From Acidimicrobiia bacterium UBA5794 (GTDB lineage: Bacteria; Actinomycetota; Acidimicrobiia; Spongiisociales; UBA5794): DNA of 64,000 nucleotides. This document shows positions 1,879 to 33,577 of this stretch, one piece after another. The DNA is taken from contig DIDS01000014.1 in NCBI GenBank assembly GCA_002418265.1, forward strand, positions 146,503 through 210,502, given 5' to 3'. Every line of letters starts with the position of its first letter. The first letter of the stretch is position 1. A program made the translations under genes and the position numbers. The notes under the pieces were generated by a model that had not been told where the DNA came from, did no database searches, and saw only the letters and a list, made by a program, of their open reading frames with translations.

Positions 1879-1981
1879 TTCGGGTGCGAGCTGAACGTCG
1901 AGTTGTTGGTCGCGTTAGACGCAGATGCAGGGCGCATAGCCGCCACTGGCCATTGGAGCAGCCGGATGCGAACATGAGGGG

Positions 1982-2572: not shown

Positions 2573-2589
2573 CCCAATGGTGCCATCTT

Positions 2590-2643: not shown

Positions 2644-2665
2644 CCGCTGTCGCCCATCGCTAGGG

Positions 2666-5583: not shown

Positions 5584-5586
5584 CTT

Positions 5587-6648
5587 TCATGGGATGAGAA
5601 TGGTTCGTCGAGGATCGACACGGTTGTGTGCGTCATCGAGAGCTTGCGCAATGTCCGTCATCGGCACCTTGCGGATGAACGGTGCGAGGTCCACCTTGCC
5701 GGAGGTGACGAGTTCGATCGCCTCCGGGTAGAGCTGCGGTGGGCAGCCCCAGGTGCCAAAGGCCGTGGCGTCGAAGGCCATGAGGTTCGAGAGTCTGACA
5801 GAGATCTTGTCCATGGTGAAACCCACGACCGCAAGCGTTGCCTGTGGGCCAAGCATGCCGTAAGCGGTTTCTTGACCGGGAGCGGTTCCCGAGCACTCAA
5901 AGATCTTCCAACCGGTGGCTGGCTTCCCGAATGTCTTGGCGTGTGCTCGCACAGCGTCGCGGACGTCACGCGGCGACATGCCCCGCGAATTCACGGTTGC
6001 CGAGGCTCCGAAATCCTTGAGCTGGTCGAGTCGTTCGTCGTCGATGTCGACCGCAACGACCGTGCCACCGGAGGCGGCTGCAATCTGGACCGCATACGAA
6101 CCGACGCCGCCGACGCCCACAATGACGACGAAGTCGCCGTCTGACACTCCCGCCCGTCGAACGGCCTGAAGCGGTGTCGTAACGGCGTCTGCGATAACGG
6201 ACAGATCAGCGAGCTCATATCGGTCAGGAAGGCCTTCGATCACCGACAACCCGTTCGTTGGCACGGTGATGTGTGTTGCCCATCCCCCGTCAAGATCGTT
6301 GCCAGGCATCTTCTGGTTGATGCAGGCGTTGCCCTTCCCTGCAAGGCACAGGTCACATATGTCACAGGGAATCACCGCCGGAATGAGCACTGCTTTTTCG
6401 AGCCAGTCCTCAGCTCCCGGTCCAGCCTCGACGACGCGACCACTGATCTCGTGACCCAGGACGATGGGAAGTGGTTGCTTCGTGGCAACGCTTCCGTCAA
6501 GGAATCCAAGGTCCGTGTGGCACACGCCGCATCCGGCGATTTTCACCACAACCTCGCCTTGACCGGGGCGACGCGCAGCATCCTCAACCCGTTCGAGAGG
6601 TTCACCAACCGCGTTGAAACGCCACGAATACCTACCGTCGCTGCTCAT
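5587..6648 (-). CDS. had: Zn-dependent alcohol dehydrogenase family, 6-hydroxycyclohex-1-ene-1-carbonyl-CoA dehydrogenase-like
   Basis: It has the GCGVCHTD and GHEISG Zn-ADH motifs and the GVGGVG Rossmann motif. It lies directly upstream of oah. Confidence 0.7.
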   Translation of the reverse strand: MSSDGRYSWRFNAVGEPLERVEDAARRPGQGEVVVKIAGCGVCHTDLGFLDGSVATKQPLPIVLGHEISGRVVEAGPGAEDWLEKAVLIPAVIPCDICDLCLAGKGNACINQKMPGNDLDGGWATHITVPTNGLSVIEGLPDRYELADLSVIADAVTTPLQAVRRAGVSDGDFVVIVGVGGVGSYAVQIAAASGGTVVAVDIDDERLDQLKDFGASATVNSRGMSPRDVRDAVRAHAKTFGKPATGWKIFECSGTAPGQETAYGMLGPQATLAVVGFTMDKISVRLSNLMAFDATAFGTWGCPPQLYPEAIELVTSGKVDLAPFIRKVPMTDIAQALDDAHNRVDPRRTILIP

Positions 6649-6666
6649 TGCCTGTCTCCCGTCCCT

Positions 6667-7650
6667 TCAAACACGCTCTGTGGCCGCCTCGGTCAGCGCC
6701 TTTGCCACATGCACAGAGATCATCCACTTGCGGTACCGCTGGCCCGTGTCAGTGTTGTCCTGGGCCCGGACGGGCTTGGAAGCGATCTCGGATGCCTCAT
6801 CGATGACCTCGGGTGTGAGCTGTTTCCCGACAAGGAATTCCTCGGCATCGGTTGCACTCACCGGGGCAGAGGCGATGCCACCCACGACGATGCGCGCCGT
6901 GTCGCAACGTCCCTCGGAATCAACGTCGACGGCGCACGCAACGGAGAGCAGAGCAAAGTCGATTGATCCGCGCCGACGCAGCTTTTGGAACGACGTACGT
7001 GCTGTCGTTGCAGGAATCGTGACGTCCACAAGGATCTCATCCGATGTCTTGGTGAGGTAGTTGATTCCATCGCTGCGATACAGCGAGTCGGCGGTCACCA
7101 CCCTCTCACCACGTGAGCTGACCAATCGCACCGATGCGTTGAGGGCTATGACGACCGGGGCGAGATCGGTTGAGCTGATGGCCCAGCAACGGTCGCTCGC
7201 TGGCGCAACCCAACACGTGTCACCGCCATCCTTGAGGCAATGTCCACGGGCTTGTCGCCACGTCAGAGGCATGTCGATGTAGTTGCAGCGCGTATCGACG
7301 CACAGGTTGCCACCGATCGTTGCCGAGTTCCTGATCTGGGGCGAGGCCACGGTTGCTGCAGCAGAAGCCAGCATCGTCGGAACATCAGGTGACGATGCGA
7401 TCTCACTCAGCGTTGTGAGGGCGCCGATGACGCATGCACCGTCATCAGTGATAGCAATACCGTGCATCGCTTCAATGTTGGCGAGCGAGACCAAGGTGAT
7501 CGGAGCTGCCTGGTGACGCTTGAGTTTGGGTACAAGATCGGTGCCTCCTGCAATGAGAACGGCACGATCGTCGGGATCCGAAACAAGCCTCGCAGCTTCT
7601 TCAAGCGTCCCCGCGGACACGAACCCGACCGGTGGCACCTGAATGGTCAC
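6667..7650 (-). CDS. hcrB: FAD-binding medium subunit of an xanthine-dehydrogenase-family molybdoenzyme with a [4Fe-4S]-type Cys insert (4-hydroxybenzoyl-CoA reductase beta-like)
   Basis: It has the AGGTDL FAD motif. The insert is CNYIDMPLTWRQARGHCLKDGGDTCWVAPASDRC, with Cys at residues 122, 138, 146 and 155. The GTG start overlaps the hcrA stop (GTGA). Confidence 0.8.
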   Translation of the reverse strand: MTIQVPPVGFVSAGTLEEAARLVSDPDDRAVLIAGGTDLVPKLKRHQAAPITLVSLANIEAMHGIAITDDGACVIGALTTLSEIASSPDVPTMLASAAATVASPQIRNSATIGGNLCVDTRCNYIDMPLTWRQARGHCLKDGGDTCWVAPASDRCWAISSTDLAPVVIALNASVRLVSSRGERVVTADSLYRSDGINYLTKTSDEILVDVTIPATTARTSFQKLRRRGSIDFALLSVACAVDVDSEGRCDTARIVVGGIASAPVSATDAEEFLVGKQLTPEVIDEASEIASKPVRAQDNTDTGQRYRKWMISVHVAKALTEAATERV

Positions 7651-10037
7651 GAAACACCCACCTCGATGTGTATGCGCCCTGTCGGGAACCCCTCTGGTGG
7701 CTCAACCATGATCAGGGGTGGGAACTCAAATGCGGGTACCTCTTTCGGGCCGAATCTGCCGGGCTTGCCCCTCGCCACATCTCGAAGAGCGGCAACGATC
7801 TTGTCCGGTGTGAAGGGTGTCTGATCCATGCGGATCCCGAGGGCATTCCAGATTGCATTTGCCACAGCTGGAATGACGGGGAGCAGTGGACCTTGCCCTA
7901 CCTCCTTCGCTCCGAAGGGTCCCTCAGGATCGTCGGAATCGATGAGAATGGCCTCCACTGGGGGCATGTCGAGCGATGTGGGCATCTTGTAGTCCAGCAA
8001 TGACGGACCACGGTGCAATGCTCCACGGAAGTCATCGGCCTCAAAGAGTGCCTCCCCCAGCCCCATGTAGACGCCCCCTTCGATCTGGCCCTCGACGAGC
8101 AGCGGGTTGATCGATTGACCGATGTCGTGTGCGAGCCAGACCTTGTCAACGGTGACGATGCCCGTATCGGGGTCACAGTCGACCTCGACGACTGCTGCCG
8201 AATAGCTGTAGGCAGGTGAGATCCCGACTCCGGCACCCTTGTAGGGTCCCGCAAGCTTGGGGGCTCGATAGCTGCCCGATTCGATCAGCGGTCCGCCACT
8301 GGCAATGGCGAGTGCAACGGCCTCGGCCCAGGACACGCCCGTGTCGGGTTCTTCGGCATCTTCTATTCGCCCGTTCTGCGCGACAAGACTCTCGATGGGC
8401 GCTCCGAGCTTGTCGGCGACAGCGGCAAACACACGATCCTTGACGGCCGTTCCTGCTTCGAGCGCAGCGTTGCCTCCCATGAAGGTGACCCGTGATGAGT
8501 AGCTGCCCAGATCGACAGGGGTGAGGTCGGTATCGGCCGTGACCATTGCAATGTCAGACGGCTCAAGTCCGAGGACCTCGGCAACAACCGTTGCGAGCAT
8601 GGTTGTCGATCCCTGCCCGATGTCGGTGGCCATCGAGAACACGGTGACGCCACCTCCACGGTCGACCTTGATCTGGACCTCGGATTGGGGCATCTCGTTG
8701 AAGTAGATGGGAAGCCCAGCTCCACACATGTAGGCGCCCACCGCGATTCCAACACCCTTGCCGGCAGGCAGGTTCTCAAATTTCTCCTTGAATCCTGATG
8801 CCTCGGCGACACGTTCAATACATTCCGAGAGGGCACAACTCGTGATCCTGAGATGGTTCACCGTCATGGAATTCGGCTCTACTGCGTTGATGAGACGAAT
8901 GGCGACAGGGTCGATCCCGAGATCCTCGGCTGCTTTGTCGAGTTGACATTCGAGGGCGAATCTCGGCTGCGGTGTTCCATGACCACGCTTTGGTCCACAG
9001 GGAGGCTTGTTCGTGAAGACCCGCACCCCCTCAAACCGATAGTTCGGAATCTGATAGGTCGATGTCTGGAGGGCGCCCGTGTAATACAACGAGGCGGCTC
9101 CATAGCTTCCGAAGGCACCACCTTCGAGGAAGGTCTTGAAGTGACATGCCGTGATGCGGCCCTCGGTGTCGAAACCGGTCTTGACCCACATCAGAACAGG
9201 GTGACGACCCCGGTGTGCATAGAAGACCTCCTCACGGGTCAGGGTGAACTTGACCGGTCGTCCCGTGACCATTGCAAGCTTCGCTGCAACGATTTCGTGT
9301 GAGAACGGATCGGTTTTGCCACCGAACCCACCCCCGACGGGAGCGGCAACAACCCTGATCTGACCGGCCGGCATTTCCAGCACCTTGGCAAGAGTCCGGT
9401 GCACATAGTGCGGTACCTGCGTCGAAGACCACAGCGTGACCCTGCCACCGGGTTCAGCAGTGGCCAAGGCTGCGTGTAGCTCGAGCGCAGCGTGGGTGTT
9501 TCCTGCGAAATAGAAGACGTCCTCACGAATGTGGTCCGCTGAGGCGAGTCCTTCATCAACATCTCCGAATTCCAGTGCCGCGGTCCGATGGACGTTCAGT
9601 CCCTTGCCTTCCCCGTGGATGAGATCGCGATCTTCGAGCAGTGCCCCATCGATCGAGGCAACCGTGTCGAGCGGCTCATAGGTGGCCTTGATGAGATCGA
9701 CGGCTCGTTCGGCGGTTTCGGCATCGATGGCAGCGACGGCTGCGATGGGTTCCCCCACATGCCTGACCTTGCCGACGGCGAGAGCTGTTTCGTCCTGGCT
9801 GACGGGAAGAATGCCATACGTGATCGGAAGGTCGGTGCCAACAAGCACGGCCTTGACACCGTCGAGGGCTTCAGCCGCCGAAGTGTCAATTGAGATGATC
9901 CGTGCATGGGCCTGCGTGCTTCGTGCGAGACGCCCGATGAGCATCCCGGGAAGGGTCATGTCGTCGGTGTACTTCGTCCGCCCCATGGTCTGTTCCATGC
10001 CATCGATTCGCGGCCCAGCGGTACCAACAGCGTGCAT
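7647..10037 (-). CDS. hcrA: molybdopterin-binding large subunit of an xanthine-dehydrogenase-family enzyme (4-hydroxybenzoyl-CoA reductase alpha-like)
   Basis: It is 796 aa with aldehyde oxidase/XDH a/b-hammerhead and Mo-binding segments (GGGFGGK, GQGSTT). It sits between the 2Fe-2S and FAD subunit genes. Confidence 0.85.
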   Translation of the reverse strand: MHAVGTAGPRIDGMEQTMGRTKYTDDMTLPGMLIGRLARSTQAHARIISIDTSAAEALDGVKAVLVGTDLPITYGILPVSQDETALAVGKVRHVGEPIAAVAAIDAETAERAVDLIKATYEPLDTVASIDGALLEDRDLIHGEGKGLNVHRTAALEFGDVDEGLASADHIREDVFYFAGNTHAALELHAALATAEPGGRVTLWSSTQVPHYVHRTLAKVLEMPAGQIRVVAAPVGGGFGGKTDPFSHEIVAAKLAMVTGRPVKFTLTREEVFYAHRGRHPVLMWVKTGFDTEGRITACHFKTFLEGGAFGSYGAASLYYTGALQTSTYQIPNYRFEGVRVFTNKPPCGPKRGHGTPQPRFALECQLDKAAEDLGIDPVAIRLINAVEPNSMTVNHLRITSCALSECIERVAEASGFKEKFENLPAGKGVGIAVGAYMCGAGLPIYFNEMPQSEVQIKVDRGGGVTVFSMATDIGQGSTTMLATVVAEVLGLEPSDIAMVTADTDLTPVDLGSYSSRVTFMGGNAALEAGTAVKDRVFAAVADKLGAPIESLVAQNGRIEDAEEPDTGVSWAEAVALAIASGGPLIESGSYRAPKLAGPYKGAGVGISPAYSYSAAVVEVDCDPDTGIVTVDKVWLAHDIGQSINPLLVEGQIEGGVYMGLGEALFEADDFRGALHRGPSLLDYKMPTSLDMPPVEAILIDSDDPEGPFGAKEVGQGPLLPVIPAVANAIWNALGIRMDQTPFTPDKIVAALRDVARGKPGRFGPKEVPAFEFPPLIMVEPPEGFPTGRIHIEVGVS

Positions 10038-13587: not shown

Positions 13588-14889
13588 ATGCCAACCGACC
13601 GGCCGGAAGGCTACGATCATCAAGGAGGCAGCGTGGTGCAAGCGGACAACACCAGCAATCGGGAACAGGAACTGCTCTACGACTGGAACACGATCGGTGG
13701 GGAATCCATCCCAGCACCCAGCGTTGTTGAACTCGACGACGAGTCACTTCGAGATGGCCTTCAGAGCCCTTCGGTGCGCCAACCGAACCTCGACGAAAAG
13801 CTCGACATCCTCCACCGCATGGAAGGTCTCGGCATCCATGCAGCCGACCTCGGGTATCCGGGAGCCGATCCGGTTGTTCTCGACCATGTGGTCGCCCTCG
13901 CCGAGGAGATCCGCAACGAGGGCTTCAAGATCGAGCCCAACTGCGCAGGCCGCACGCATCCCGCTGACATTTTCCCCATCGCAGAGGCCCAGCAGCGTTC
14001 CGGTCTTCCGATCGAAGCGTCCCTCTTCATCGGCATGAGCCCCATCCGCCAGTTTGTTGAAGGCTGGGACGTCGACTTCCTCCTCAAGACCACGGTCGAT
14101 GCCGTGACCCTTGCCCGCAAGGAAGATCTTGAGGTCATGTACGTGACCGAGGACACCACACGGGCACGGCCCGAGATCCTCCGCAAGGTCTATACGGCCG
14201 CCATTGAGGCCGGCGCACGTCGCATCTGCATCGCCGACACCGTCGGACACGCAACACCATGGGGAGTCAAGGCACTCATCAAGTTCGCAGTCGAGATCGT
14301 GAAGGACTCCGGCGAGGACGTCAAGATCGACTGGCACGGGCACCGGGATCGGAACCTGTCGGTCATCAACTCCATCGAAGCGCTCTCCGCCGGCGCACAC
14401 CGCGTCCACGGGTGCGGTGGAGGGATCGGCGAACGTGCCGGGAACACCCCGATGGAGATGTTGCTTGTCAACCTCAAGCTCATGGGATGGCTCGATCACG
14501 ATCTGACAACGCTGCCCGCCTACTGCGAGGCCATCTCGAAAGCAACGGACACACCGATTCCGAACAATTGGCCAGCCATCGGTCAGGATGCCTTTGCTAC
14601 GAGCACCGGCGTGCACGCAGCCGCGGTGCTCAAAGCGATCAACACTGGTGATACGTGGCTCGCAAACCGGATCTACAGCGGCGTGCCCGCCGATGTTCTC
14701 GGTCGGGAACAGGAGATCACTGTCGGACCGATGAGCGGAAAGGCCAATGCCATTGCGTGGCTCACCAAACGGGGCCACGACCCCGACGAACCAACCGTGG
14801 ACAAGATCCTTGCCGCAGCAAAGGCATCGGATCACGTCCTGCTTGAGAATGAGATTCTTGAGCTTCTCTCAACGGCAAACACACCATGA
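13588..14889 (+). CDS. HMGL-like (DRE-TIM) 2-isopropylmalate / homocitrate / citramalate synthase family protein
   Basis: It has the DESLRDGLQSP and HGHRDRNLSV...GIGERAGNTPME motifs. It is 433 aa and lacks a LeuA regulatory domain. The start may be internal. Confidence 0.8.
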   Translation: MPTDRPEGYDHQGGSVVQADNTSNREQELLYDWNTIGGESIPAPSVVELDDESLRDGLQSPSVRQPNLDEKLDILHRMEGLGIHAADLGYPGADPVVLDHVVALAEEIRNEGFKIEPNCAGRTHPADIFPIAEAQQRSGLPIEASLFIGMSPIRQFVEGWDVDFLLKTTVDAVTLARKEDLEVMYVTEDTTRARPEILRKVYTAAIEAGARRICIADTVGHATPWGVKALIKFAVEIVKDSGEDVKIDWHGHRDRNLSVINSIEALSAGAHRVHGCGGGIGERAGNTPMEMLLVNLKLMGWLDHDLTTLPAYCEAISKATDTPIPNNWPAIGQDAFATSTGVHAAAVLKAINTGDTWLANRIYSGVPADVLGREQEITVGPMSGKANAIAWLTKRGHDPDEPTVDKILAAAKASDHVLLENEILELLSTANTP

Positions 14890-16697
14890 CTGTCGACATC
14901 GAACCTCGTAGCGAGACCGGTACCACCGTTCTCCTTTCCGGAAACGAAGCCATTGCCCGTGGTGCGGTGGAGGCCGGAGCCCTTGTGGCAGTCGGCTACC
15001 CCGGTACGCCAAGCACTGAGATTTTGGAATCCATCGCGCACCGCACTGAAATGCAGGTGCGATGGTCACCAAACGAAAAGGTTGCACTCGATGTTGCCCT
15101 CGGAGCGTCCCTTGGTGGAGTTCGGACCCTCTGCACGATGAAGCACGTCGGTCTCAACGTTGCAGCAGACACCTTCATGACCATGGCCTACACCGGAGTC
15201 GGCGCAGGTCTGGTCATCGTCGTTGCAGACGATCCTGGCATGCACAGCTCCCAAAACGAGCAGGACACAAGGGCCTATGCACGCATGGGCGGCGTACCGC
15301 TGCTCGAACCAAGCAACAGCAAAGAAGCAAAAGCATTCACTGCCCTCGCCTTTGAGATCTCAGAGCAATTCGACACACCGGTTCTCGTTCGTACAACGAC
15401 ACGAGTTTCGCACAACCGAGGCGTCGTTGAGCTTGGAGACCGTATGGACAAGCCAGTCGTCGGCTTCGAGCGCAACCCGCAGAAGTACGTCATGATTCCA
15501 GGTCACGCCCGAGGGCGACGGCCGGCTCTCCTGCGGCGCCTCAAGGAACTCGCCGAATATGCCGAAACGAGTCCACTCACCAAGGAATCGGGGACGGGCG
15601 ATTCTTTCGGGGTTGTGACCTCCGGGATCGTACACAACTACCTGCGTGAGGTTCTGCCGGACGCCAAGGCACTCAAACTCGGGATGAGCCATCCCCTCCC
15701 GATCGGGAGAATCAGGGAGTTTTCCAAGACCGTTGACCGCTTGTTCGTGCTTGAAGAGCTCGACCCCATCGTGGAGAACGATCTGCGCGCCGCGGGTATC
15801 GCCGTCGAAGGAAAGGAGTTCTTCCCCCAAGTCGGTGAGCTCAGCCCCGATGCGGTACGACGAGGGTTTGCCGCTGCAGGCATCCTCCCCGAGTACCTCT
15901 CGATCGAGCCAGCACCGGGCACCGTTGCGCGACCCCCGCTCCTGTGCCCCGGGTGTCCCCACACACCTCCGTACCTCGCCCTCAAGCGACTGGGAGCAGT
16001 TGTCACCGGAGACATCGGTTGCTACACCCTTGCGGCGCTTGAGCCGCTCTCGTCGATGGATACCTGTATTGCAATGGGTTCCAGCATTGGGATGGCAGTC
16101 GGTATGGCAGCATCAGGCGGTGCGGGTGCACCGGTTGTTGCGACCATTGGAGACTCGACCTTCCTGCACGGTGGTATTGCAGGACTTGCAGATGCCGTCT
16201 ATGCAGACGCAAACATCACGGTGATCATCCTCGACAACGGAACAACAGCCATGACCGGCGGGCAGGAACATCCCGGCACCGGGACCACACTCCAAGGGGC
16301 GGAAGCAAAAGCTGTCGACCTGGTAGGACTATGTGAGGCTCTCGGTGTCAGGGACGTCCGGGTGATCGACCCCTACGACATGGGTGCAACCTACAGCGCC
16401 ATCGAGGGTGCGGTCGCACACATCGGTCCATCCGTTGTCATCACAAACCGTCCATGTGTCGAGGCGCCGGTCAAGGTCAGGGATACACCCTTCAAGGTGA
16501 TTGCCGAGGCATGTACCGCTTGTCAGCTCTGCATGACTGCGGGTTGTCCTTCAATCGTGTGGTCAGAAGAGACATTCGAAGGTCGCCGCAAGGTCGTCAT
16601 CGATCCGGTCACCTGCACTGGTTGCACCATCTGTGCCCAGCTCTGCCCCCCACTGGCGATCATCCCGATCACCTCAGAAGCGGAGGCAGCACGATGA
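14886..16697 (+). CDS. iorA: indolepyruvate/arylpyruvate:ferredoxin oxidoreductase alpha subunit
   Basis: It has GNEAIARGAVEAG, GYPGTPSTEI and a TPP-binding GDSTF..GG segment. The C-terminal Cys clusters are CTACQLCMTAGCP and CTGCTICAQLCP. ATGA overlap with the upstream gene. Confidence 0.85.
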   Translation: MTVDIEPRSETGTTVLLSGNEAIARGAVEAGALVAVGYPGTPSTEILESIAHRTEMQVRWSPNEKVALDVALGASLGGVRTLCTMKHVGLNVAADTFMTMAYTGVGAGLVIVVADDPGMHSSQNEQDTRAYARMGGVPLLEPSNSKEAKAFTALAFEISEQFDTPVLVRTTTRVSHNRGVVELGDRMDKPVVGFERNPQKYVMIPGHARGRRPALLRRLKELAEYAETSPLTKESGTGDSFGVVTSGIVHNYLREVLPDAKALKLGMSHPLPIGRIREFSKTVDRLFVLEELDPIVENDLRAAGIAVEGKEFFPQVGELSPDAVRRGFAAAGILPEYLSIEPAPGTVARPPLLCPGCPHTPPYLALKRLGAVVTGDIGCYTLAALEPLSSMDTCIAMGSSIGMAVGMAASGGAGAPVVATIGDSTFLHGGIAGLADAVYADANITVIILDNGTTAMTGGQEHPGTGTTLQGAEAKAVDLVGLCEALGVRDVRVIDPYDMGATYSAIEGAVAHIGPSVVITNRPCVEAPVKVRDTPFKVIAEACTACQLCMTAGCPSIVWSEETFEGRRKVVIDPVTCTGCTICAQLCPPLAIIPITSEAEAAR

Positions 16698-17566
16698 GTG
16701 ACAACTCAAAAGGACTGCTCTTAGCAGGCGTCGGTGGACAGGGTGTCATTCTCGCAAGCATGATCATCGCCGATGCACTCATGCGTGCCGGGTTCGATGT
16801 CAAACAAAGCGAAGTCCACGGCATGGCTCAGCGTGGCGGATCAGTGGTGAGCCACATCCGTTGGGGCAAAGAAGTGGCAAGTCCCCTTGTGGAGAAGGGC
16901 TCTGCCGAGGTACTCGCAGCCTTCGAGTGGGCTGAGGCGATCCGCTGGGTCGATTACGTGCGCAACGAAGGAGCCGTCGTCACCGACATCAAGACCATCG
17001 TTCCCCCCGGTGCATGCAACGACACCCACGCATGGTCGACTGCCTATCCGCGATTCGAGATCGACCTGTTCCGAAGCAGGCTCATCGAAACGCGGTTCGT
17101 TGACGCCACAGCAAACGCAGTACAGCTCGGGAACGTCCGGGCCGCCAACAGCGTGATTCTCGGGTCGGTCGCCGCGTTCGTTGGTATCGATCTCATCCAT
17201 TGGGAGGAGGCGATCGCAAGTCTCGTCCCGAAGGGAACCGAAGAGATCAACCTCGCCGCGTTCCACGCCGGAATGAATGCACCTATGGCGCAAATTCCGG
17301 CGCCTCCAGCGGAACCAGCGGAGTACCTGGGACCGCATCTGATCGATATCCAGCAGGATTGGTGCAAGAGCTGCGACATCTGTCCCAGGGTCTGCCCCGA
17401 GCACTGCCTCAAACTCGACACGGACGGGACCCTGCTCGTGATCAATGCCGATGCCTGCACCGGTTGCCGACTCTGCGAGATGCTCTGCCCCGACTTTGCC
17501 ATAACGATCCGACCACCCGCAGCCGCGGAACACCACGAACCAGCCATTTCGGGGAGGAAGATGTGA
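16694..17566 (+). CDS. iorB: IorB-type (gamma-like) subunit fused to a 2x[4Fe-4S] ferredoxin (delta-like) domain
   Basis: The N-terminus reads GVGGQGVILAS...HGMAQRGGSVVSH. The C-terminus has CKSCDICPRVCP and CTGCRLCEMLCP. ATG 16694 overlaps the iorA stop. Confidence 0.8.
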   Translation: MSDNSKGLLLAGVGGQGVILASMIIADALMRAGFDVKQSEVHGMAQRGGSVVSHIRWGKEVASPLVEKGSAEVLAAFEWAEAIRWVDYVRNEGAVVTDIKTIVPPGACNDTHAWSTAYPRFEIDLFRSRLIETRFVDATANAVQLGNVRAANSVILGSVAAFVGIDLIHWEEAIASLVPKGTEEINLAAFHAGMNAPMAQIPAPPAEPAEYLGPHLIDIQQDWCKSCDICPRVCPEHCLKLDTDGTLLVINADACTGCRLCEMLCPDFAITIRPPAAAEHHEPAISGRKM

Positions 17567-18717
17567 CAATCCAAATCACGATGCCCGGGGAGAAACTCAT
17601 CCAGGGAAATGAGGCGTGCGTCATGGGCGCCATTGCTTCGGGGTGCAACTTCTACGGCGGCTATCCGATTACACCGTCAAGCGAGATCGCCGAGCACATG
17701 GTGCGGCGGATGCCCAAGGTCGGTGGCGTATCAATCCAGATGGAAGACGAGATCTCAGCGCTTGCGTCAATCATCGGGGCATCCCTCGCCGGATCCAAGG
17801 CGATGACGGCAACGTCGGGTCCGGGGTTCTCGCTCATGCAGGAGCATATTGGATTCGCCGCCATGGCCGAAGTGCCCTGTGTGATCGTCAACGTCATGCG
17901 CGGAGGTCCGAGCACCGGAATGCCGACCTCACCATCGCAGGGCGACGTGATGCAGGCGCGCTGGGGAACCCACGGAGATCACCCTGCGATTGTGCTTGCA
18001 CCGGCTTCCGTCGGCGAGGTTTTCGACCTCACCGTGAAGGCCTTCAACCTGGCAGAACGGTTCCGTACACCCGTCATCCTGCTCTATGACGAGATCATCG
18101 GTCATACTCGTGAAAGTGTCTCACTACCCGAATCCGTCACGGTCATTGACAGGGTGACACCCGATGACGCCCTCGAGGAATTCTGGCCCAAGGAGGCAGA
18201 TCCCGACGGAGTCCCCGCCATGTCCCCGTTCGGAGATGGCCGCCGTTTCCATGTGACCGGTCTCGCCCACGACCACCGGGGATTCCCAACCAACGACACG
18301 GCTGTCGCCGAGGCACTGATCAACAGGCTCCACCGCAAGATTGACGCCCACCTTGATGAGGTCATCGAGGTCGAGGAGTATCTGCTGGACGACGCTGACG
18401 TTGCGATCTTTGCATACGGCATCGTCGGGCGGTCAGCCAAGCTCGCTGTCGAACGTGCCCGCCTGAACGGCATCAAGGCCGGCCTCATCAGGCCGCTGAC
18501 CCTGTGGCCGTTCCCGACGGCGCAGGTCGCTGAGGTTGCCCGCAAGGTCGACACGATCGTCGTTGCAGAAATGAATCTCGGACAACTCGTCGGTGAGGTC
18601 GAGCGCGCCGCAAAGGGACAAGCAGAGGTGGTTTCACATCTGCGCACGGGAGGCGAGCCGGTGACACCAACCGCACTTGAAGAGGTGCTTGCCAAGATCG
18701 ATGGAGGAAACGCATGA
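17563..18717 (+). CDS. korA: 2-oxoacid:ferredoxin oxidoreductase alpha subunit (KorA/OorA type)
   Basis: It has the GNEACVMGAIASGCNFYGGYPITPSSEI motif. GTG 17563 overlaps the upstream stop. An alternative ATG lies at 17581. Confidence 0.85.
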   Translation: MTIQITMPGEKLIQGNEACVMGAIASGCNFYGGYPITPSSEIAEHMVRRMPKVGGVSIQMEDEISALASIIGASLAGSKAMTATSGPGFSLMQEHIGFAAMAEVPCVIVNVMRGGPSTGMPTSPSQGDVMQARWGTHGDHPAIVLAPASVGEVFDLTVKAFNLAERFRTPVILLYDEIIGHTRESVSLPESVTVIDRVTPDDALEEFWPKEADPDGVPAMSPFGDGRRFHVTGLAHDHRGFPTNDTAVAEALINRLHRKIDAHLDEVIEVEEYLLDDADVAIFAYGIVGRSAKLAVERARLNGIKAGLIRPLTLWPFPTAQVAEVARKVDTIVVAEMNLGQLVGEVERAAKGQAEVVSHLRTGGEPVTPTALEEVLAKIDGGNA

Positions 18718-19598
18718 CCGATGTCAAGATCGACATCCAGCCAGATATGACGACAGAGGTCACAGCAACCGAAAGAGCAGACGTCAGGTCGTATCTGCGT
18801 CAATGGGCAATGCCTCACGTGCTGTGCCCCGGATGCGCCCACGGCATCGTCTTGCGATCCTTTCTTGAAGCCGTCGATCAGCTCCAACTCGATCAGGACA
18901 AGATCGCGATGGTTGCCGGTATCGGCTGTAGCTCGCGACTCGCGGGATACGTCGACTTCTGCACCCTTCACGGAACCCATGGAAGAGCGCCAGCGTTCGC
19001 TACGGGTCTCAAACTCGCTCGGCCTGACCTCAACGTTGTCGTGGTGACAGGCGATGGCGATGGTCTCGCAATCGGTGGGAACCATCTCATCCATGCGGCA
19101 CGGCGCAACATCGACATGACGGTTCTGCTCCTCAACAATTCGATCTACGGAATGACCGGTGGTCAGGCAGCTCCCACAACGCCGGAAGGCGCCATTGCAT
19201 CGACAGCACCCCAAGGTCACATCGAGCCGGGATTTGACGCCTGCAAGTTGCTCATGGGGGCCGGGGCCAGCTACGTTGCCCGTGTGTTTGCCGCCAACCC
19301 GATCGAAATGACCAAAGTCATGATGGATGGACTCTCACATCCGGGATTCGCATTCATCGAATTGGTCAGTGACTGCCCCGAATATTTCGGGAGGTACAAC
19401 AAGATCGGTGGCGGACCCGAGATGCTCAACTGGATCGCTGTGCGCGATGAGGGTATTGCAGGGCCACTGTCCGAGAAGCGCTTCGTTGAGCATATTCCGG
19501 TCAAGCCTCCGGCCATCGGCGTCAAGTCCGGTGTCCTCCAGCGAGAGATCAGGCCGGTCTACGCAGGTGTCCGTGCAGCAGAGGGCCAGCACACATGA
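18714..19598 (+). CDS. korB: 2-oxoacid:ferredoxin oxidoreductase beta (TPP-binding) subunit
   Basis: It has CPGCAHG, GIGCS and GDGD..AIGGNH TPP motifs. ATGA overlap with korA. Confidence 0.9.
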   Translation: MTDVKIDIQPDMTTEVTATERADVRSYLRQWAMPHVLCPGCAHGIVLRSFLEAVDQLQLDQDKIAMVAGIGCSSRLAGYVDFCTLHGTHGRAPAFATGLKLARPDLNVVVVTGDGDGLAIGGNHLIHAARRNIDMTVLLLNNSIYGMTGGQAAPTTPEGAIASTAPQGHIEPGFDACKLLMGAGASYVARVFAANPIEMTKVMMDGLSHPGFAFIELVSDCPEYFGRYNKIGGGPEMLNWIAVRDEGIAGPLSEKRFVEHIPVKPPAIGVKSGVLQREIRPVYAGVRAAEGQHT

Positions 19599-20134
19599 CA
19601 CGGCGTGAGATCCGTATCGCAGGTGCCGGTGGGCAAGGCGTTGTCACCGCTGGTCGGATCCTTGCTGAGGCTGCGATCCTGTCGGGGAAGAAGGCAACCC
19701 ACAGCCAGCTCTACGGTCCACAGGCTCGAGGAGGATCGAGTCGCTCCGATGTCATCATCGCCCCCGACACGGTCGGATTTCCCCTCGCAGACAACATCGA
19801 TACGCTCTTGGCCCTGTCACAGAAGGCATTCGACAAGTATGTACCCGAGCTTGCCGTGGGAAGCCTGCTCATCGTTGATACACAATGCAAATCGGACACG
19901 CCCCCCGAAGGTGCGCTCTATTTCCCCATCGTCGACACGGCACGACTCGCCACCGGAGGCGAGCTTGCCACCGGCTTGGTTGCACTCGCCGTGCTCCAGG
20001 CACACACCGGTCTCATAGACGCAGACGCGCTCAGGAAGGCGGTTTCGGGCCGGATTCCCCAACAGCATCTCAAGTCGAGCCTTGAGGCCTTGGAAGCAGG
20101 GATGGAGCTTGCCCCCCAGGGTGCCTTGACGTGA
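19595..20134 (+). CDS. 2-oxoacid:ferredoxin oxidoreductase gamma subunit
   Basis: It has the IAGAGGQGVVTAGRILA and YGPQARGG motifs. ATGA overlap with korB. Confidence 0.85.
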   Translation: MTRREIRIAGAGGQGVVTAGRILAEAAILSGKKATHSQLYGPQARGGSSRSDVIIAPDTVGFPLADNIDTLLALSQKAFDKYVPELAVGSLLIVDTQCKSDTPPEGALYFPIVDTARLATGGELATGLVALAVLQAHTGLIDADALRKAVSGRIPQQHLKSSLEALEAGMELAPQGALT

Positions 20135-27189: not shown

Positions 27190-28572
27190 GTGAATGTTCT
27201 TTTGATTTCTACGTACGAACTGGGTCGGCAACCGGTACATGTCGCAAGTCCGGCAGCGGCACTTGAGGCATCGGGCCACACCGTCAAGGCAATCGACCTT
27301 GCGGTTCAACAATGGGATCCCGCCCTCGTCGACTGGGCAGACACCGTTGCCATCTCGACGCCGATGCACACCGCCATGCGTCTCGCGATTTCCGTGTGTC
27401 GAAGGATCAAAGATCGTCGGCCGGATCTTCCGGTCGCCGCATACGGTCTCTATGCCGGCATGATGAACGAAGAGGAGTCGGACCTTTTCGACCGGGCAAT
27501 CGTCGGCGAGTACGAGAACACTCTGGTGCAATGGGTTGCTGGCCAACATTCGGATGAACCGGTGACGGTCCACCTCGACCGAGGTGGGTTCCGGAACCCG
27601 GACCGAAGCATCCTCCCCTCACTCGACCACTATGCACATCTGTCAGTCAACGGCGAAGAGCGGCTTGTAGGGGCCGTCGAGGCATCGCATGGGTGTGTTC
27701 ATCTGTGTCGTCACTGTCCGATTCCCGTTGTCTACAACGGCACGCTACGGATCGTCGATGCGGAAACCGTGCTTGCCGATATCGATCAGCAGGTCGCATC
27801 GGGTGCCCGACACATCACGTTCGGGGACCCGGATTTCCTGAATGGCCCTGCCCATTCTCTTCGGATCATTCGAGCAATGCACGAACGGCACCCCGACGTC
27901 ACGTTCGACTGCACGGTCAAGGTGGAGCACATCCTCGCTCATGCCGACATTTGGGACGAGTTCGCATCTGCAGGTTGTCTGTTCGTGGTGTCGGCATTCG
28001 AATCAATGAACGACGACGTGCTCATCAAACTCGACAAGGGACATACGGCTGAAGACGCGGCACGAGCCGTTCATCTTCTCCGAGACGCAGGCATCGACAT
28101 CAGGCCATCGTGGCTCCCATTCACCCCGTGGACGACACGGGAAGACATCGACGCGATGTTCCGTTTCATCAGCAGTCACGATCTGATCGAGTCGACCGAT
28201 CCGGTCCAAATGGGGATACGCCTCCTCATTCCCGCTGGGTCGCTCGTGCTTGACATCGACGGAATCGACAGGTTCATCGGCCAATACGACAGCATTGCCC
28301 TCACCCACGAGTGGACGAGTGATGACCCGGCCATGGATGCGTTGTCGGAAACCCTCATGAACATCGCGGAACAAGCATCGACCGATGGACTGTCGACAAC
28401 CGACACATTCATGCAACAGTGGCTGGCTGTCACGGATGGCACCGATCTCGAAGCCCCAACCGTGGCCATTGACCAGGGAGCGACGCTTGGCCGACCCAAG
28501 CTGACCGAATCCTGGTTCTGCTGAGCTGAGCCAACCGCGAGCCAGTTGGGCTCGCTCGATTCCCCAGACTGA
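27190..28572 (+). CDS. B12-binding-domain radical SAM protein with a C-U-A-E-P tail (probable selenoprotein; TGA 28522-28524 read as Sec)
   Basis: It has the CVHLCRHC (Cx3Cx2C) radical SAM motif. The ORF-track stop is preceded by TGC and followed in frame by GCT GAG CCA. The frame stays open to TGA 28570-28572. A hairpin lies right after the UGA. Confidence 0.75.
28525..28555 (+). other. candidate bacterial SECIS hairpin
   Basis: GCuGAGCC-AAC / GUUgGGCUC-GC pairing gives about 10 bp with two single-nt bulges and a 9-nt loop (CGCGAGCCA). It begins 1 nt after the UGA. Confidence 0.5.
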
Positions 28573-28592
28573 GGACTCTCCCCGTCCTCTCT

Positions 28593-29270
28593 TCAGGAAC
28601 CACCGTGTCGTCTTTCGACAACCCGGTGAACGAGGATTGCGGCACCAATCGCGATGGCAGCCCCCATCGCGGCTCCACCAGCCGCGTCGGAGAACCAGTG
28701 GGCTCGGAGATATACGCGACTCAGGGCCATGACGAACGCAAACACACCTGCGATGATTTCCAAGTTGCGTCGCTCGGGACCGGCGGGCACCAGGACGATG
28801 ACGAGGGCAATCGCAACGGCGGCACTGGCAACGGAATGACCAGACGGAAACGAGTAGCCGGTGGTGGCAACAAGGGACATCGGGGGCCGTGGTCTTGCGT
28901 ACAGCGCCTTCACCGGACCGATGAACAGCTGTGACACCACCATGGCGAGCCCCCAAAAGGCAAGGCCCTCCCAACGTTTGCGGACAATGAGGTACACGGC
29001 GACTCCCACCATGATCGGTGCAACGATGATGGTGCTTCCGATGAAGTCCAAGACTTTGGCAAGCATCACAAGGACTGAGGATTCTGCATCAACTGCCAGT
29101 TGCCAGATCCAGTCGTCGATACCTTGGAGCCATTCCTTCATCGGCAGTACGGCGAGAGCAATGAATGTGAAACCCCCTATGGCCCACAAGATGAGAGACA
29201 CCCTCAACGTGGCGGGATGGTTCGCCAGCAGTGGGTGACGTATGAGTCGTTTCTGGGAGTTGGAGGTCAC
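28593..29270 (-). CDS. PAP2-family phosphatase (membrane)
   Basis: It has the YARPRPP, SFPSGHS and SRVYLRAHWFSD motifs. The GTG start overlaps the upstream stop (GTGA). Confidence 0.9.
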   Translation of the reverse strand: MTSNSQKRLIRHPLLANHPATLRVSLILWAIGGFTFIALAVLPMKEWLQGIDDWIWQLAVDAESSVLVMLAKVLDFIGSTIIVAPIMVGVAVYLIVRKRWEGLAFWGLAMVVSQLFIGPVKALYARPRPPMSLVATTGYSFPSGHSVASAAVAIALVIVLVPAGPERRNLEIIAGVFAFVMALSRVYLRAHWFSDAAGGAAMGAAIAIGAAILVHRVVERRHGGS

Positions 29271-31792
29271 AGCAGCCCATCACTTTCGAGTCGTCTCAAA
29301 GCGAACACGCCCGGAAGAATCGGTAGCCAGAAGGTCGCGATGCGATAGAGAAAGGTCGCAGAAACGGCAGTTGTCGCATCGAGGCCGAGAGCCGTCATTG
29401 CCGCAATCATTGCAGCTTCTGTTGCTCCGATGCCGCCAGGTATGGGAGCCAGATTCCCGAGCGCCTGGCCGCCCAGAAAGGTGAGCGCAACCCCAGCGAT
29501 ACTCAACCCGCCACCGAACGCCTCAAGGCTGAGCCACAGCGCGCCAATGGAAGCGATGATGATTGTGAAGGATCCACCGAAGAGCATCAGGATCTTCTCG
29601 GGTGAGGTCGCCACCCGTCCGAGGCTTCGACCGGAAGACTTGATCGCTGGCCATACCTTGGCAACGAAGAGCTTTCGGCTGAGTGGGAGAAACAGGACGA
29701 GGCTTGACAATGTGAAGACAGCCACCAGACCCACCAGCACCGTGTTCTCGGACGGAAGCTTGATGAAGTCATCGGCATTTCGTCCGAGCGTGATCACCGT
29801 GAAGAGCAGCAGTGCCATGTGAACTGCCATGGTGACCACGTTGGCGAGTCCAACCCCAGCGGCAGCTGATGTGAGGTCGATGCCGCTCTTTTGGAGGTAG
29901 CGGACGTTCGTGGCCATTCCTCCGATCTTCACGGGCGTGATTCGGTTGACGAAGGTTCCGGCGAACTGGGCGAGAATGGATGGAGCGAGCTGGATCCGTT
30001 CTGACACAGATCCCATGATGTTGAGGGCGGCGCCAACATATGTGGCGAACGCTGCCAAAAGAATCGCAGGTGTCCACTCCCAATCGGCATCAAGCACGGC
30101 ACGGAAGTCGGTTTTTGCAAGCTCGGGAATCAGGAAGTACATCGCAAGGGCGAAACCGAAAATCATGAGCACGGTCCGAGTCCCGACACGTTCGAGATTC
30201 TCGAGCGGTGTCTCCTCGACACCGGTTTGGGCCTCGATCTGTTCCCGGATGACTTCGTCGAGCCCTCTTTGCTGCTTGAGCGCCCCCCGGGTCGCACGCG
30301 TGAGCGCTGAGGGTTGAATCCTCGAGGACGCATCGGCGACTGGTTCGGGTCCGAGCACAGCAATGGCGCAGGCGACCGCTCGACGGGCACCAACGGCGGG
30401 CGCCGTTGAGGCGATCAACTCTGCAACATCAGATCGGAGTTCTCCCTCGGTGGCGGCCAGTTCTGAGAATCCAAAGTCGATGAGCCATGGTTTTCCGTCA
30501 GATGAAAACAAGACATTGGCGAGCCTGAGATCCCGGTGGGCGGTGCGATGATCGCGGAGAATCGCGACTTGCTTCCAGATGCTGCACAGCAATTCGTCCG
30601 TTATTGAGTCGGGTGCCACCGTATCGAGTGATCTGCCGTCGACCTGGTCATATGCCATCATCATCGATGTTGGTGGAATATCCGCTATCGCCTGCAGCTG
30701 TGGTGTCATGACGCCATCCTTGGAGGCCATCAGCGAGGCGACCGCCTCGTGCTCGACAGCGCGCTTGAGCGAGAGAAAGGGGATTTCGTCCCCAACATCT
30801 CTGAGGCGGAACATTCGCACAACTCTGAACATGATGTCGGAGTCGCGATCATCGTGTGTGAGTACCTTGATGAAGAGCCGCTTGCCATCCGACCGTATCC
30901 CGAAGTACGGCATCGATCCACGAGCGTCTACACCCGCCCGTTGGAGGAATGCAAGTCGTAGCCCTACTCGTTCGAGTCCTTCTGCAACGTCGAAACCTCG
31001 GGGACGACGGTCGGGTTCACCGAACATGAGCAAGACTGCGGCACCCATTGCATATGCAATGCCGATCGCAAGAAGTTCATCCACCGGTGCGTCGAGGTAC
31101 AAGATCACGCGGGTGGTGGCGAACAGGGCTATGGCGATCCATGCGTATCGTTTCCAGCGGTGGGTGAGGTGTGGAGCAATCGTAGAGAAGAACGCAGTGA
31201 GCGACACCAAAGAACCAAAGCGGAGTAACGGGTTGGACAGTGGTGGAACGACGATGCAATCAAGGAGTCCTCGACTCGCTCGGTCAGGACCACAGATCCA
31301 CGCGGGCTGGGTGGACAGAAGGTTCGGAGTAGAGAACGTCGACACCAGATATGTCTTCACCAACCAGAGGATTGCCAGTGACGCGATGACCGCAATGCCG
31401 GCCAGTGCGAGGCTTCTCCACCGTTTGTGCCCGACGAAGTACCACACGACGACGAAGGGAAGAATGGCACCAGCCGCTGATGTCAGAAGGAGAAGGACCA
31501 CCATCACCGCGCTCGGGACGTTGTCGAGAGTATCGACAACTTGGACGGTGATCGCTTCTGAAACCTGGTTGATCATCGTCGCCAGGGAGAACCCGACAAC
31601 GGTCACGATGACGGCTACCAGCAAGCGCAGGAGATCGGTTGGATGACGTCGATTGTGCTGTCGGGGCGGTTCATCGATCACCACCTCAGGTGGCGATGAC
31701 ACCGCCGTGGTGCGTCGGTGGTCCCCCACACCCTCATGGCCCATCGTTGTACTCAGGTCGTCAGCAGAAATGCGAGGGTCTGAGGGTTCCAC
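29267..31792 (-). CDS. multi-domain membrane protein: N-terminal TM region, protein-kinase-like domain and a C-terminal MprF-type flippase-like (UPF0104) domain
   Basis: It has HRDLRLANVLF...LIDFGFSE kinase-like motifs. The C-terminus reads GGQALGNLAPIPGGIGATEAAM. The start (GTG 31790-31792) abuts the upstream TAA. An alternative ATG lies at 31744. Confidence 0.75.
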   Translation of the reverse strand: MEPSDPRISADDLSTTMGHEGVGDHRRTTAVSSPPEVVIDEPPRQHNRRHPTDLLRLLVAVIVTVVGFSLATMINQVSEAITVQVVDTLDNVPSAVMVVLLLLTSAAGAILPFVVVWYFVGHKRWRSLALAGIAVIASLAILWLVKTYLVSTFSTPNLLSTQPAWICGPDRASRGLLDCIVVPPLSNPLLRFGSLVSLTAFFSTIAPHLTHRWKRYAWIAIALFATTRVILYLDAPVDELLAIGIAYAMGAAVLLMFGEPDRRPRGFDVAEGLERVGLRLAFLQRAGVDARGSMPYFGIRSDGKRLFIKVLTHDDRDSDIMFRVVRMFRLRDVGDEIPFLSLKRAVEHEAVASLMASKDGVMTPQLQAIADIPPTSMMMAYDQVDGRSLDTVAPDSITDELLCSIWKQVAILRDHRTAHRDLRLANVLFSSDGKPWLIDFGFSELAATEGELRSDVAELIASTAPAVGARRAVACAIAVLGPEPVADASSRIQPSALTRATRGALKQQRGLDEVIREQIEAQTGVEETPLENLERVGTRTVLMIFGFALAMYFLIPELAKTDFRAVLDADWEWTPAILLAAFATYVGAALNIMGSVSERIQLAPSILAQFAGTFVNRITPVKIGGMATNVRYLQKSGIDLTSAAAGVGLANVVTMAVHMALLLFTVITLGRNADDFIKLPSENTVLVGLVAVFTLSSLVLFLPLSRKLFVAKVWPAIKSSGRSLGRVATSPEKILMLFGGSFTIIIASIGALWLSLEAFGGGLSIAGVALTFLGGQALGNLAPIPGGIGATEAAMIAAMTALGLDATTAVSATFLYRIATFWLPILPGVFALRRLESDGLL

Positions 31793-33577
31793 TTACAGCG
31801 ACTGTCGATATCCGAAGAACTCGTGGTCCTCGTTGTAGCCGCCAAAACCTCCCCCGATGTTCGAGAAATCCTCAACGAACTCCAGCCCTTGAATCCATTT
31901 GACCTGCTTGAAACCGAGTTGGACCTCGTTGCGCAGACGCAACGGCGCACCGTGTCCATACGAGAGCGGTTCACCGTTCATGTCGTAGGCGAGCATGGTG
32001 AGGTGGTATCCCATCTGTTCAATCGGATGGGCATCGTAGTAAAGGCCTTCGTCCGGTCCATCTCCGAGTGAATAGAAGACGACCCACTTGGTCTCGGCTC
32101 GAGGACGAACGAGATCAACGATCGTTTGCATCGATACGCCTCCCCATTTGGCAACACCAGACCATCCCTGAATGCAGAAATGCTGGGTGATCTGTTCGTG
32201 GCGCGGCAAGGCCCGCAACTGGGAGAGACTGAGCTCAACGGGATTGTCGACGCATCCAGAAATCTGGAGCCGATAGTCCTCAAAGTCGTTGTCGAACAGC
32301 TCTCGATATCGAGTTGATGTCGGATACTTTCCGTTGTGCCAGAAATACTCCGATATGTCAGATTCGCTGTATTCCCCGGGTGTTGCATCGACATGTTCGA
32401 ACAGGCGTTGTATCGGGCCGATCAGCGCGTACCCCACTCGTTGAACCACACGGGGCTTACGCAAGGTGAAGGGTGTGGCAGCAACCCATCCTATGACGAC
32501 AACAACCATCGACAGGGAAAACACCGTGAATCCGATCCAAGAATCGTCGTTACGAAACGCATACATGTGATTGAGGTTGCGCAACAAACCGGTCATGAAC
32601 ACCATTGAGACGTGCATCACGATGAACAAGAGAAACCAAACGAGAACGAAGAAGTGCAAGGATCGCGCCACTTGAATGCTGAGCAGTTTGCTCAGTCGTT
32701 TGAAGCGAGTCGACAACGCCGGTGACATACCGAGACCTGTGACGAGGGCTAGAGGCGCCGCCACGAACACCGTGACGAAGTAGGAAAGGAGCTGAAGGCT
32801 GTTGTAGGCAACCCACCCGTGTTCGGCTGGCCAGTCAAGGGATAGATATTGGATCAGTACCGATACTGCATTCGGGAACACCGCCCACGACGTGGGTACG
32901 AGGCGCATCCAGTGGCCTGTCGCGAAGAGCAGTACATAGAACACGAGACCGTTGGCGAGCCAGATCACATCGACACCGAGATGCCACCACCGAGCCAGTC
33001 CGATGGAATGGCGAATTCCGGGAAGTCCCACCTGTTGGGGTAGCCCGACCGAATCCTCCTTTGCGGTCCACAGGGGATCCTCAGGAACCGGCTCTTGAAA
33101 GCGGAACCAGTCGCGTCCCGGGGTGCTGTGGCGCGTCCAATACAGCCGGGGATGGTCGGCAAGAATCTGGATTCCTGACCGGATGATGAAGATCATCAAG
33201 AACAGATTGAGGAAATGCTGAATCCCGACAAAGACGGGGAATCCTGCGTCCTGGAGGGCATTCGGTGGCTCCACCGTGCCCGGATATCGTGCGATGAAGT
33301 CCTGCGCCCAGGACATGTTTCGGAGTCCCTGTGCGGCTGCAACGGCACCGATGAGCAGCACAAAACCAATCGGAAGAAGCCACAGCAGGTTGAACCAGCG
33401 GCTCCGACCGATGCGAATGCGTGGCGCAATTCCCCCGGACTGGGGCATCGAACCAGCCCACGTCTGGGGATCAACGACACTGCCACCAACGGTGAGCTGC
33501 TCTTGAAGGGAAGCGCCCTCGATCGGATGGTTCGCATGCGCCGCTGCGGGCTCCTCGTTGCCGACGCTGCTGGTCAT
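31793..33577 (-). CDS. molybdopterin-dependent oxidoreductase (sulfite-oxidase/YedY-like domain) fused to an N-terminal polytopic, cytochrome b-like membrane domain
   Basis: The C-terminus has QHFCIQGWSGVAKWGGV and GAPLRLRNEVQLGFKQVKW (SUOX-family Moco domain). The N-terminal ~370 aa has multiple TM helices. Confidence 0.8.
   Translation of the reverse strand: MTSSVGNEEPAAAHANHPIEGASLQEQLTVGGSVVDPQTWAGSMPQSGGIAPRIRIGRSRWFNLLWLLPIGFVLLIGAVAAAQGLRNMSWAQDFIARYPGTVEPPNALQDAGFPVFVGIQHFLNLFLMIFIIRSGIQILADHPRLYWTRHSTPGRDWFRFQEPVPEDPLWTAKEDSVGLPQQVGLPGIRHSIGLARWWHLGVDVIWLANGLVFYVLLFATGHWMRLVPTSWAVFPNAVSVLIQYLSLDWPAEHGWVAYNSLQLLSYFVTVFVAAPLALVTGLGMSPALSTRFKRLSKLLSIQVARSLHFFVLVWFLLFIVMHVSMVFMTGLLRNLNHMYAFRNDDSWIGFTVFSLSMVVVVIGWVAATPFTLRKPRVVQRVGYALIGPIQRLFEHVDATPGEYSESDISEYFWHNGKYPTSTRYRELFDNDFEDYRLQISGCVDNPVELSLSQLRALPRHEQITQHFCIQGWSGVAKWGGVSMQTIVDLVRPRAETKWVVFYSLGDGPDEGLYYDAHPIEQMGYHLTMLAYDMNGEPLSYGHGAPLRLRNEVQLGFKQVKWIQGLEFVEDFSNIGGGFGGYNEDHEFFGYRQSL

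Follow-up and report, generated by a model that had tools for sequence, protein, structure and literature searches.

The stretch analysed here, called the window throughout, comprises 64,000 nucleotides (60% G+C) from the Acidimicrobiia bacterium UBA5794 (assembly GCA_002418265.1, contig DIDS01000014.1, positions 146,503 to 210,502) and carries a radical S-adenosylmethionine (SAM) gene. In a mechanical list of open reading frames (ORFs), this gene occupies 27190..28524, encodes 444 amino acids and is closed by a TGA. The original prediction, made from the sequence alone, proposed that this TGA is read as selenocysteine (Sec) and that ORF calling truncates the gene. The codons it described are all in place. 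TGC precedes the TGA, GCT GAG CCA (Ala-Glu-Pro) follows it (span 28519-28533), and the frame then continues for 12 sense codons (T A S Q L G S L D S P D) to a second TGA, which leaves 20 nt (28573-28592) before the stop of the convergent PAP2 ORF 28593..29270. With U placed at the first TGA, the C-terminus is translated as CUAEPTASQLGSLDSPD. The features of the locus, together with those of related loci referred to below, are collected in Table 1.

Table 1. Coordinates of the radical SAM gene and its recoding features in the window, and of features at related loci (locus handle given before the coordinates).
Feature	Position	Strand	Description and evidence
Radical SAM coding sequence up to the predicted Sec codon	27190..28521	+	444 codons, GTG start; ORF list, Pfam, NCBIfam
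CxxxCxxC motif	27694..27717	+	C169-V-H-L-C173-R-H-C176, ligands of the radical SAM [4Fe-4S] cluster; translation
TGC, Cys444	28519..28521	+	first residue of the C-U dipeptide; codon reading
In-frame UGA, predicted Sec codon U445	28522..28524	+	alignment with TGA/Cys loci; family model runs through
C-terminal tail	28525..28569	+	AEPTASQLGSLDSPD, 15 codons; gain in family-model score, in-frame conservation
TGA, predicted true stop of the extended 460-residue protein	28570..28572	+	similarity to the 87%-identical orthologue collapses right after
Candidate Sec insertion sequence (SECIS) hairpin	28537..28555	+	5' arm GCGAGCC 28537-28543, loop AGUUG 28544-28548, 3' arm GGCUCGC 28549-28555
tRNA-Sec	L048 and L049, 9925-10019	-	ARAGORN; Rfam RF01852, 69.1 bits (gathering score 47)
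Tandem UGA-UGA site	L050 3882-3896
Tandem UGA-UGA site	L051 3847
Tandem UGA-UGA site	L052 2224
Tandem UGA-UGA site	L136 ~1618-1632
Tandem UGA-UGA site	L137 ~2823-2837
Example partner gene	L015 11371-12618
Example partner gene	L021 7574-8836
Example partner gene	L041 11387-12640
Example partner gene	L023 15086-16309	-
Example partner gene	L038 9325-9966

In the window, TGA is the stop of 47 of the 59 long ORFs, and 35 of these 47 are followed by at least 15 open codons. Because TGA stops with open extensions are so common here, an open frame past a TGA is by itself uninformative, and the significance of the read-through call comes entirely from homology and comparative data. A sequencing error can be set aside, since the identical sequence is present in at least six independent assemblies. 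The exact protein is encoded on contig JAOSJN010000001.1 (2.73 Mb) of GCA_027494075.1, and it was also found in JGI metagenome 3300029304 and in several Logan assemblies.

The truncated protein scored 537.2 bits against the NCBIfam hidden Markov model (HMM) NF040546.1 (rSAM_CUAEP, an equivalog with a cutoff of 500), and the match halted at position 457 of the 468 in the profile. When the tail was included, with U written as C, the score rose by 21 bits to 558.2 and the match covered profile positions 1-467. This is the family of CUAEP/CCAEP-tail radical SAM (seleno)proteins that the original prediction had named, which is database-curated but biochemically uncharacterised. Pfam recognised an N-terminal B12-binding-like domain (PF02310, 35.1 bits) and the radical SAM domain (PF04055, 55.5 bits), and across an alignment of 50 sequences (A3) two cysteines of the cluster motif are invariant while the third is at least 90% conserved. 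Judged by its score, its C-[U/C]-A-E-P tail and its combination of CxxxCxxC motif and B12-binding-like domain, the window protein is a plain member of NF040546, with the same architecture, tail and Sec position and no difference seen. The sole mention of the family that was found in the literature is a sentence of the Haft preprint (bioRxiv 10.1101/2022.07.06.499078), where it figures as a radical SAM protein that is uncharacterised and bears the rare CU motif, and a 2026 review of prokaryotic selenoproteomes contains it neither by accession nor by name.

To place the TGA in its family, the DNA of 125 non-redundant related loci was compared, of which 120 were typed at the Sec position. The codon pair before AEP is Cys-TGA in 81 loci, Cys-Cys in 36 and TGA-TGA in three, so that the position of Cys444 holds Cys in 117 of the 120 typed loci and TGA in the three of the tandem variant, while the position of U445 holds TGA in 81 and TGC or TGT in 36. 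In every typed locus, Sec-type (TGA) and Cys-type alike, the frame runs on as AEP[TN]xxQ[LFV]xx[LFI], and the CU-type genes follow the pattern Cys-TGA-GCN-GAR-CC. CU-type genes come from Acidimicrobiia, Chloroflexota/Dehalococcoidia and Acidobacteriota, and the family as a whole, with more than 100 distinct loci, extends to other Actinomycetota and to Proteobacteria; the nearest genomes are metagenome-assembled genomes of Acidimicrobiia. Among the best 120 database homologues, the roughly 45 closest (65-87% identical) end in ...TE[SP]WFC or ...ESWF, and more distant ones run on as ...WFCCAEPTxxQ[LF]G.L.

A pairwise comparison with the 87%-identical orthologue (L007) was made at the nucleotide level. 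The coding sequence (CDS) before the UGA is identical at 1126 of 1332 nt (84.5%), with differences that fall mostly on third codon positions (38/24/144 for the three positions). From the UGA through the tail and the stop, 50 of 51 nt are identical (98% for the 48 nt after the UGA), while only 23 of the 60 nt past the second stop are (38%). Conservation past the UGA that exceeds that of the CDS and ends at the second stop is the pattern expected where codons and a functional RNA structure share the same stretch.

The candidate for this structure is a short hairpin of 7 bp (28537-28555) that begins 12 nt past the UGA, with 19 nt between the UGA and the loop and a folding energy of -13.0 to -14.1 kcal/mol. 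The published consensus for bacterial SECIS elements comprises a loop of 3-9 nt, a stem of 4-16 bp, a distance of 16-37 nt from the UGA and a minimum free energy (MFE) of -7.5 or lower, with G and then G or U early in the loop (PMC13188914). All four of these rules are satisfied by the hairpin, which has G and then U at loop positions 2-3. Covariation was measured on an alignment (A2) of 82 distinct Sec-type sequences, with 500 shuffles and slid controls. Here, 87.6% of the cells are paired, compared with at most 58% in the slid controls, and double-sided changes occur in six of the seven pairs (114 cells), a result reached by none of the 500 shuffles. The loop reads A-G-[U/G]-U-N in all but two of the 82 sequences.

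The hairpin is largely absent from the Cys-type genes, which serve as a natural control for the SECIS. In the same columns, 87.3% of the cells are paired in Sec-type and 42.0% in Cys-type genes; the central hairpin is present in 68/80 and 4/35, respectively, and the mean MFE is -12.7 versus -7.0 kcal/mol (Mann-Whitney p = 1.3e-9). Codon usage differs accordingly between the two types: where the loop holds a Leu codon, this is TTR in all 37 Sec-type genes concerned and in 4 of 16 Cys-type genes, and the Gln codon is CAG in 79/80 versus 27/35, a choice that indicates selection at the RNA level. Sec-to-Cys switches and losses are frequent in the family. One Cys-type member that is 75% identical to the window protein (P0003; L133, ~nt 4327-4380, GCA_964505525.1) reads CCAEPTANQLGSLD and still holds six of the seven SECIS stem pairs, with an MFE of only -6.1, and looks like a recent Sec-to-Cys replacement.

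The original prediction had assigned the SECIS to a longer, bulged hairpin at 28525-28555. Such a hairpin can indeed be drawn (10 pairs, two bulges and a 9-nt loop), but it is not the SECIS. Its energy is -9.2 kcal/mol compared with -13.0 kcal/mol for the short hairpin, which is the MFE fold of the stretch; its 66-71% of paired cells equal the shuffle mean, and double-sided changes affect only 2 cells and 2 of 11 pairs, against 114 cells for the short hairpin. With the UGA in the A site, the 5' arm of the long hairpin would also sit inside the ribosome. The two hairpins are mutually exclusive because 28549-28555 can pair either with GCNGAGCC, the codons for A-E-P, or with those for T-x-x-Q. 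Which of them dominates the ensemble depends on context: the long hairpin competes when the UGA-proximal bases are free, and the short one reaches a probability of ~1.0 when they are removed, a situation that would correspond to a ribosome sitting on the UGA. The short hairpin resembles the E. coli fdhF-type SECIS in being a short stem-loop within the CDS with a 5-nt loop, G-U at loop positions 2-3, 7 bp, a spacing of 19 nt and an MFE of about -13 kcal/mol, and it differs in having no evident bulged U and no Rfam model match. Its sequence is specific to the family because the same bases double as the codons for T-x-x-Q-[LFV]-x-x-L.

Combined, the family HMM, the TGA/Cys alignment, the conservation of the tail and the covarying hairpin bear out the proposal that UGA 28522-28524 encodes Sec and that ORF calling cut the gene short. 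It is highly probable that 27190..28572 encodes a 460-residue NF040546 radical SAM enzyme with Sec as residue 445. The comparative signature of recoding is evident in these data, and we infer the mechanism itself from established bacterial Sec biology. When the ribosome stands at the UGA, the first ~12 nt downstream would lie in the mRNA channel and the 7-bp hairpin just outside it, with the AGUUG loop placing its G-U 23-24 nt from the U of the UGA, a geometry like that of the fdhF-type element. The hairpin would then recruit the SelB-GTP-Sec-tRNA(Sec) complex, Sec would be inserted, and translation would proceed through the tail to the second TGA. As a selenoprotein call this is correct but already known; it is not new and holds no surprise for a specialist. 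For annotation, it means that the gene should extend to 28572 with Sec at residue 445, as gene callers truncate this gene and dozens of its relatives, including NCBI records that already bear the family name.

Several results weigh against Sec insertion at this site. None of selA, selB, selC and selD was found in the window itself or in the 10 kb that flank it at each end (~84 kb). A search of 28300-28800 with the Rfam covariance models at E <= 10 returned no SECIS match and only a chance snoRNA-like one, with the coverage of bacterial SECIS elements in Rfam being uncertain. In some sequence contexts, moreover, the thermodynamic ensemble prefers the competing long hairpin. There are no tRNA genes in the window and no SelA, SelB or SelD Pfam domains among the genes called from ~-10 kb to +10 kb around it; a tblastn search with an E. 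coli SelD query against the DNA retrieved for the related loci (1.33 Mb) gave no match and is uninformative. When the same 1.33 Mb was scanned with ARAGORN, a single tRNA-Sec (anticodon UCA) came up. Both assemblies that carry it represent one locus, where it lies downstream of the gene for the CU-type orthologue P0004 (75% identical to the window protein), at a distance of 2.6 kb. The tRNA-Sec beside this orthologue implies that the clade has Sec decoding, which probably extends to the genome of the window itself.

A rival reading is that the genome retains the signature of a selenoprotein after losing Sec decoding, so that only a truncated, tail-less protein of 444 residues is made. The frequent switches and losses in the family fit this, as do the stem pairs retained by the Cys-type P0003. 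However, the UGA, tail and hairpin of the window gene are intact and near-identical to those of the 87% orthologue and would decay fast without selection, and the 75% relative has tRNA-Sec beside its copy. We therefore consider such a loss improbable. Still harder to sustain is the reading of the UGA as a genuine stop, with the protein ending at Cys444 and the hairpin being a terminator or a chance structure. The prevalence of TGA stops and of open extensions in the window, the gene callers and NCBI records that end at this codon, and the ~84 kb without sel genes would all agree with it, but the tail is conserved as amino acids in several phyla and can be aligned with that of Cys-type members, and conservation in the 48 nt past the UGA exceeds that of the CDS, up to the second stop and no further. 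The hairpin, in turn, is largely confined to TGA-type genes, has no U-tract and coincides with no called terminator-like site. Least credible of all is a read-through without Sec, by a reassigned code (Trp or Gly) or by near-cognate Cys/Trp suppression, for although one NCBI record (P0019, MGI9584602.1) has W here (...WFCWAGP...), UGA ends 47 of the 59 long ORFs and is thus not reassigned, the SECIS-type hairpin goes specifically with TGA-type genes, and Cys, the residue that usually stands in for Sec, occupies the position in homologues.

The P0019 protein record reads ...WFCWAGPTAVQFGSL...; it has W in place of the expected Sec or Cys and extends beyond the usual end. Another homologue of the set (P0033) corresponds to NCBI protein MDA2979795.1. 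A scan of the TGA-terminated ORFs revealed no other convincing selenoprotein candidate in the window.

A variant of the recoding site was found in a sub-clade (P0018, P0034-36, P0040 and P0042) that is 66-71% identical to the window protein and was seen in at least five separate metagenomes. Its members have TGG TTC TGA TGA GCN GAR CCA, which reads W-F-U-U-A-E-P, so that two UGA codons stand side by side in frame, with the usual tail and a single SECIS hairpin behind them. This sub-clade may encode two adjacent selenocysteines from a tandem UGA served by a single SECIS, an arrangement of which no description in bacteria was found in the literature searched. On one contig of this variant (L136), a SAM methyltransferase gene of the UbiE/Methyltransf_11 type (1725-2648, minus strand) stands ~100 nt downstream of the radical SAM gene, in convergent orientation; this pairing recalls arsL-arsM and is a single case.

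With regard to the enzyme's reaction, the second-best family of the window protein is ArsL (NF040542), with 263.4 bits and E = 4e-78 over residues 3-394 and profile positions 1-412 of 423. ArsL cleaves SAM into methylthioadenosine and a 3-amino-3-carboxypropyl species and forms the C-As bond of hydroxyarsinothricin in arsinothricin biosynthesis; deletion of its tail, which binds As(III), abolishes the product and leaves SAM cleavage in place (bioRxiv 10.1101/2024.02.01.577332; 10.64898/2026.04.29.721666). The two proteins are homologous along nearly the entire core up to the RCCLKC motif of ArsL, and both have a short Cys-rich motif at the extreme C-terminus. They differ in the motif itself, which is C-U-A-E-P with two chalcogen ligands in the window protein and RCCLKC with three cysteines in ArsL. 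CU motifs have been tied to heavy-metal chemistry in the Haft preprint (bioRxiv 10.1101/2022.07.06.499078).

The AlphaFold model of the Cys-type P0003 has a confident core (pLDDT 89.8, pTM 0.90), whereas confidence is low in residues 421-459, a segment that includes the tail, as would fit a mobile arm. Structure comparison gave as best matches the class B-like radical SAM enzymes AprD4 (6fd2), OxsB (5ul3) and TsrM (6wte), which share the same two-domain fold (Foldseek match to AprD4 with E = 8e-19 and TM 0.68) but have only 15-18% sequence identity and no Cys/Sec tail. A sequence search of the PDB gave nothing closer than AprD4 (E = 1e-5) and hence no close relative with a solved structure.

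The gene neighbourhoods also bear on the function. Genes within 4 kb were counted at the 125 loci, and the counts are lower bounds, as many contigs are short. The family is linked to the following partner genes outside the clade of the window. An ATP-grasp gene of the L-amino-acid-ligase type (PF13535, PF18603 (LAL_C2) and PF18130, with weak resemblance to BacD and DdaF) is present at 60 or more of the 125 loci, often directly adjacent and on the same strand. At least 48 loci have a gene for an NfuA-like Fe-S carrier, and at least 16 a DUF169 gene. The homology to ArsL and these ligase and NfuA neighbours suggest, but do not prove, an ArsL-like reaction.

Tentatively, the enzyme might perform such a reaction with its Cys-Sec pair holding a soft substrate. 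The flexible C-terminal pair would act as a soft-ligand arm that takes up a metalloid, a metal or a chalcogen as substrate and delivers it to the [4Fe-4S]/SAM site, where a carbon-heteroatom bond would be formed to give an unusual amino acid. In most other lineages, the adjacent L-amino-acid ligase could then join this product to another amino acid. A bolder view, which we regard as doubtful, would turn the CUAEP family into another ArsL-like branch among the radical SAM enzymes, devoted to carbon-heteroatom bonds. Here, a soft metalloid or chalcogen such as As, Sb, Se or Te would be bound by the mobile Cys-Sec arm and receive the 3-amino-3-carboxypropyl group of SAM, and the frequently adjacent ligase would build the product into a natural product of the dipeptide type.

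Both proposals meet with contrary observations. The score of 263.4 bits lies below the ArsL cutoff of 450, the RCCLKC tail is absent, and there is no linkage to arsM or an ars operon. No ars, L-amino-acid-ligase, NfuA-like or DUF169 gene is present in the window, and within its own Acidimicrobiia clade the neighbourhoods vary and are not conserved. A redox tail like that of thioredoxin reductase is an equally good reading of the vicinal Cys-Sec pair; in the mammalian enzyme, the tail is GCUG. As the main rival, and just as tentatively, the tail might be a redox-active selenenylsulfide arm or an H-atom donor in a canonical 5'-deoxyadenosyl radical reaction that involves no metalloid binding. 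The low confidence of the modelled tail fits a mobile C-terminal segment in this case as well, the structural neighbours AprD4, OxsB and TsrM are canonical class-B-like enzymes, and the window offers no ars or metal-resistance context. On the other hand, the closest sequence family, ArsL, also has a Cys-rich extreme C-terminus and uses it to bind its substrate, the link between CU motifs and heavy-metal chemistry points the same way, and a neighbouring L-amino-acid ligase fits an amino-acid product.

The family is of wider interest, as NF040546 is widespread and the closest relative to have been characterised uses unusual radical SAM chemistry to make a C-As bond. Three aspects of the present analysis may be new, namely the defined covarying SECIS, the conserved ligase and NfuA partners and the tandem UGA-UGA clade, none of which appears in the available sources on NF040546. 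They also provide experimental handles, in the form of a defined SECIS, natural Cys-type controls, L-amino-acid-ligase and NfuA-like partners and the UU variant.

The neighbours of the gene in the window encode a DUF1697 protein, a deazaflavin-type nitroreductase-family protein, PAP2, an MprF-like fusion, an MsrP-like fusion and a major facilitator superfamily (MFS) transporter. Of the two fusion ORFs, which are unusual and adjoin PAP2, that at 29267-31792 (minus strand) combines a Bud32/kinase-like region with an MprF-type flippase-like membrane domain, and that at 31793-33577 (minus strand) joins a cytochrome b (Ni_hydr_CYTB) to a molybdopterin domain of the MsrP/sulfite-oxidase type. Markers of anaerobic metabolism occur at 13588-20134 (plus strand) and at 4592-8795 of the flanking sequence L134, ~5.4-1.2 kb upstream of the window start; they comprise two 2-oxoacid:ferredoxin oxidoreductase sets as well as HGD-D and BcrAD/BadFG genes of the 2-hydroxyacyl-CoA dehydratase or benzoyl-CoA reductase type. 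Further along, three consecutive minus-strand genes (54891-57179, 57214-60105 and 60099-60908) encode proteins of 762, 961 and 269 amino acids with no Pfam match on record.

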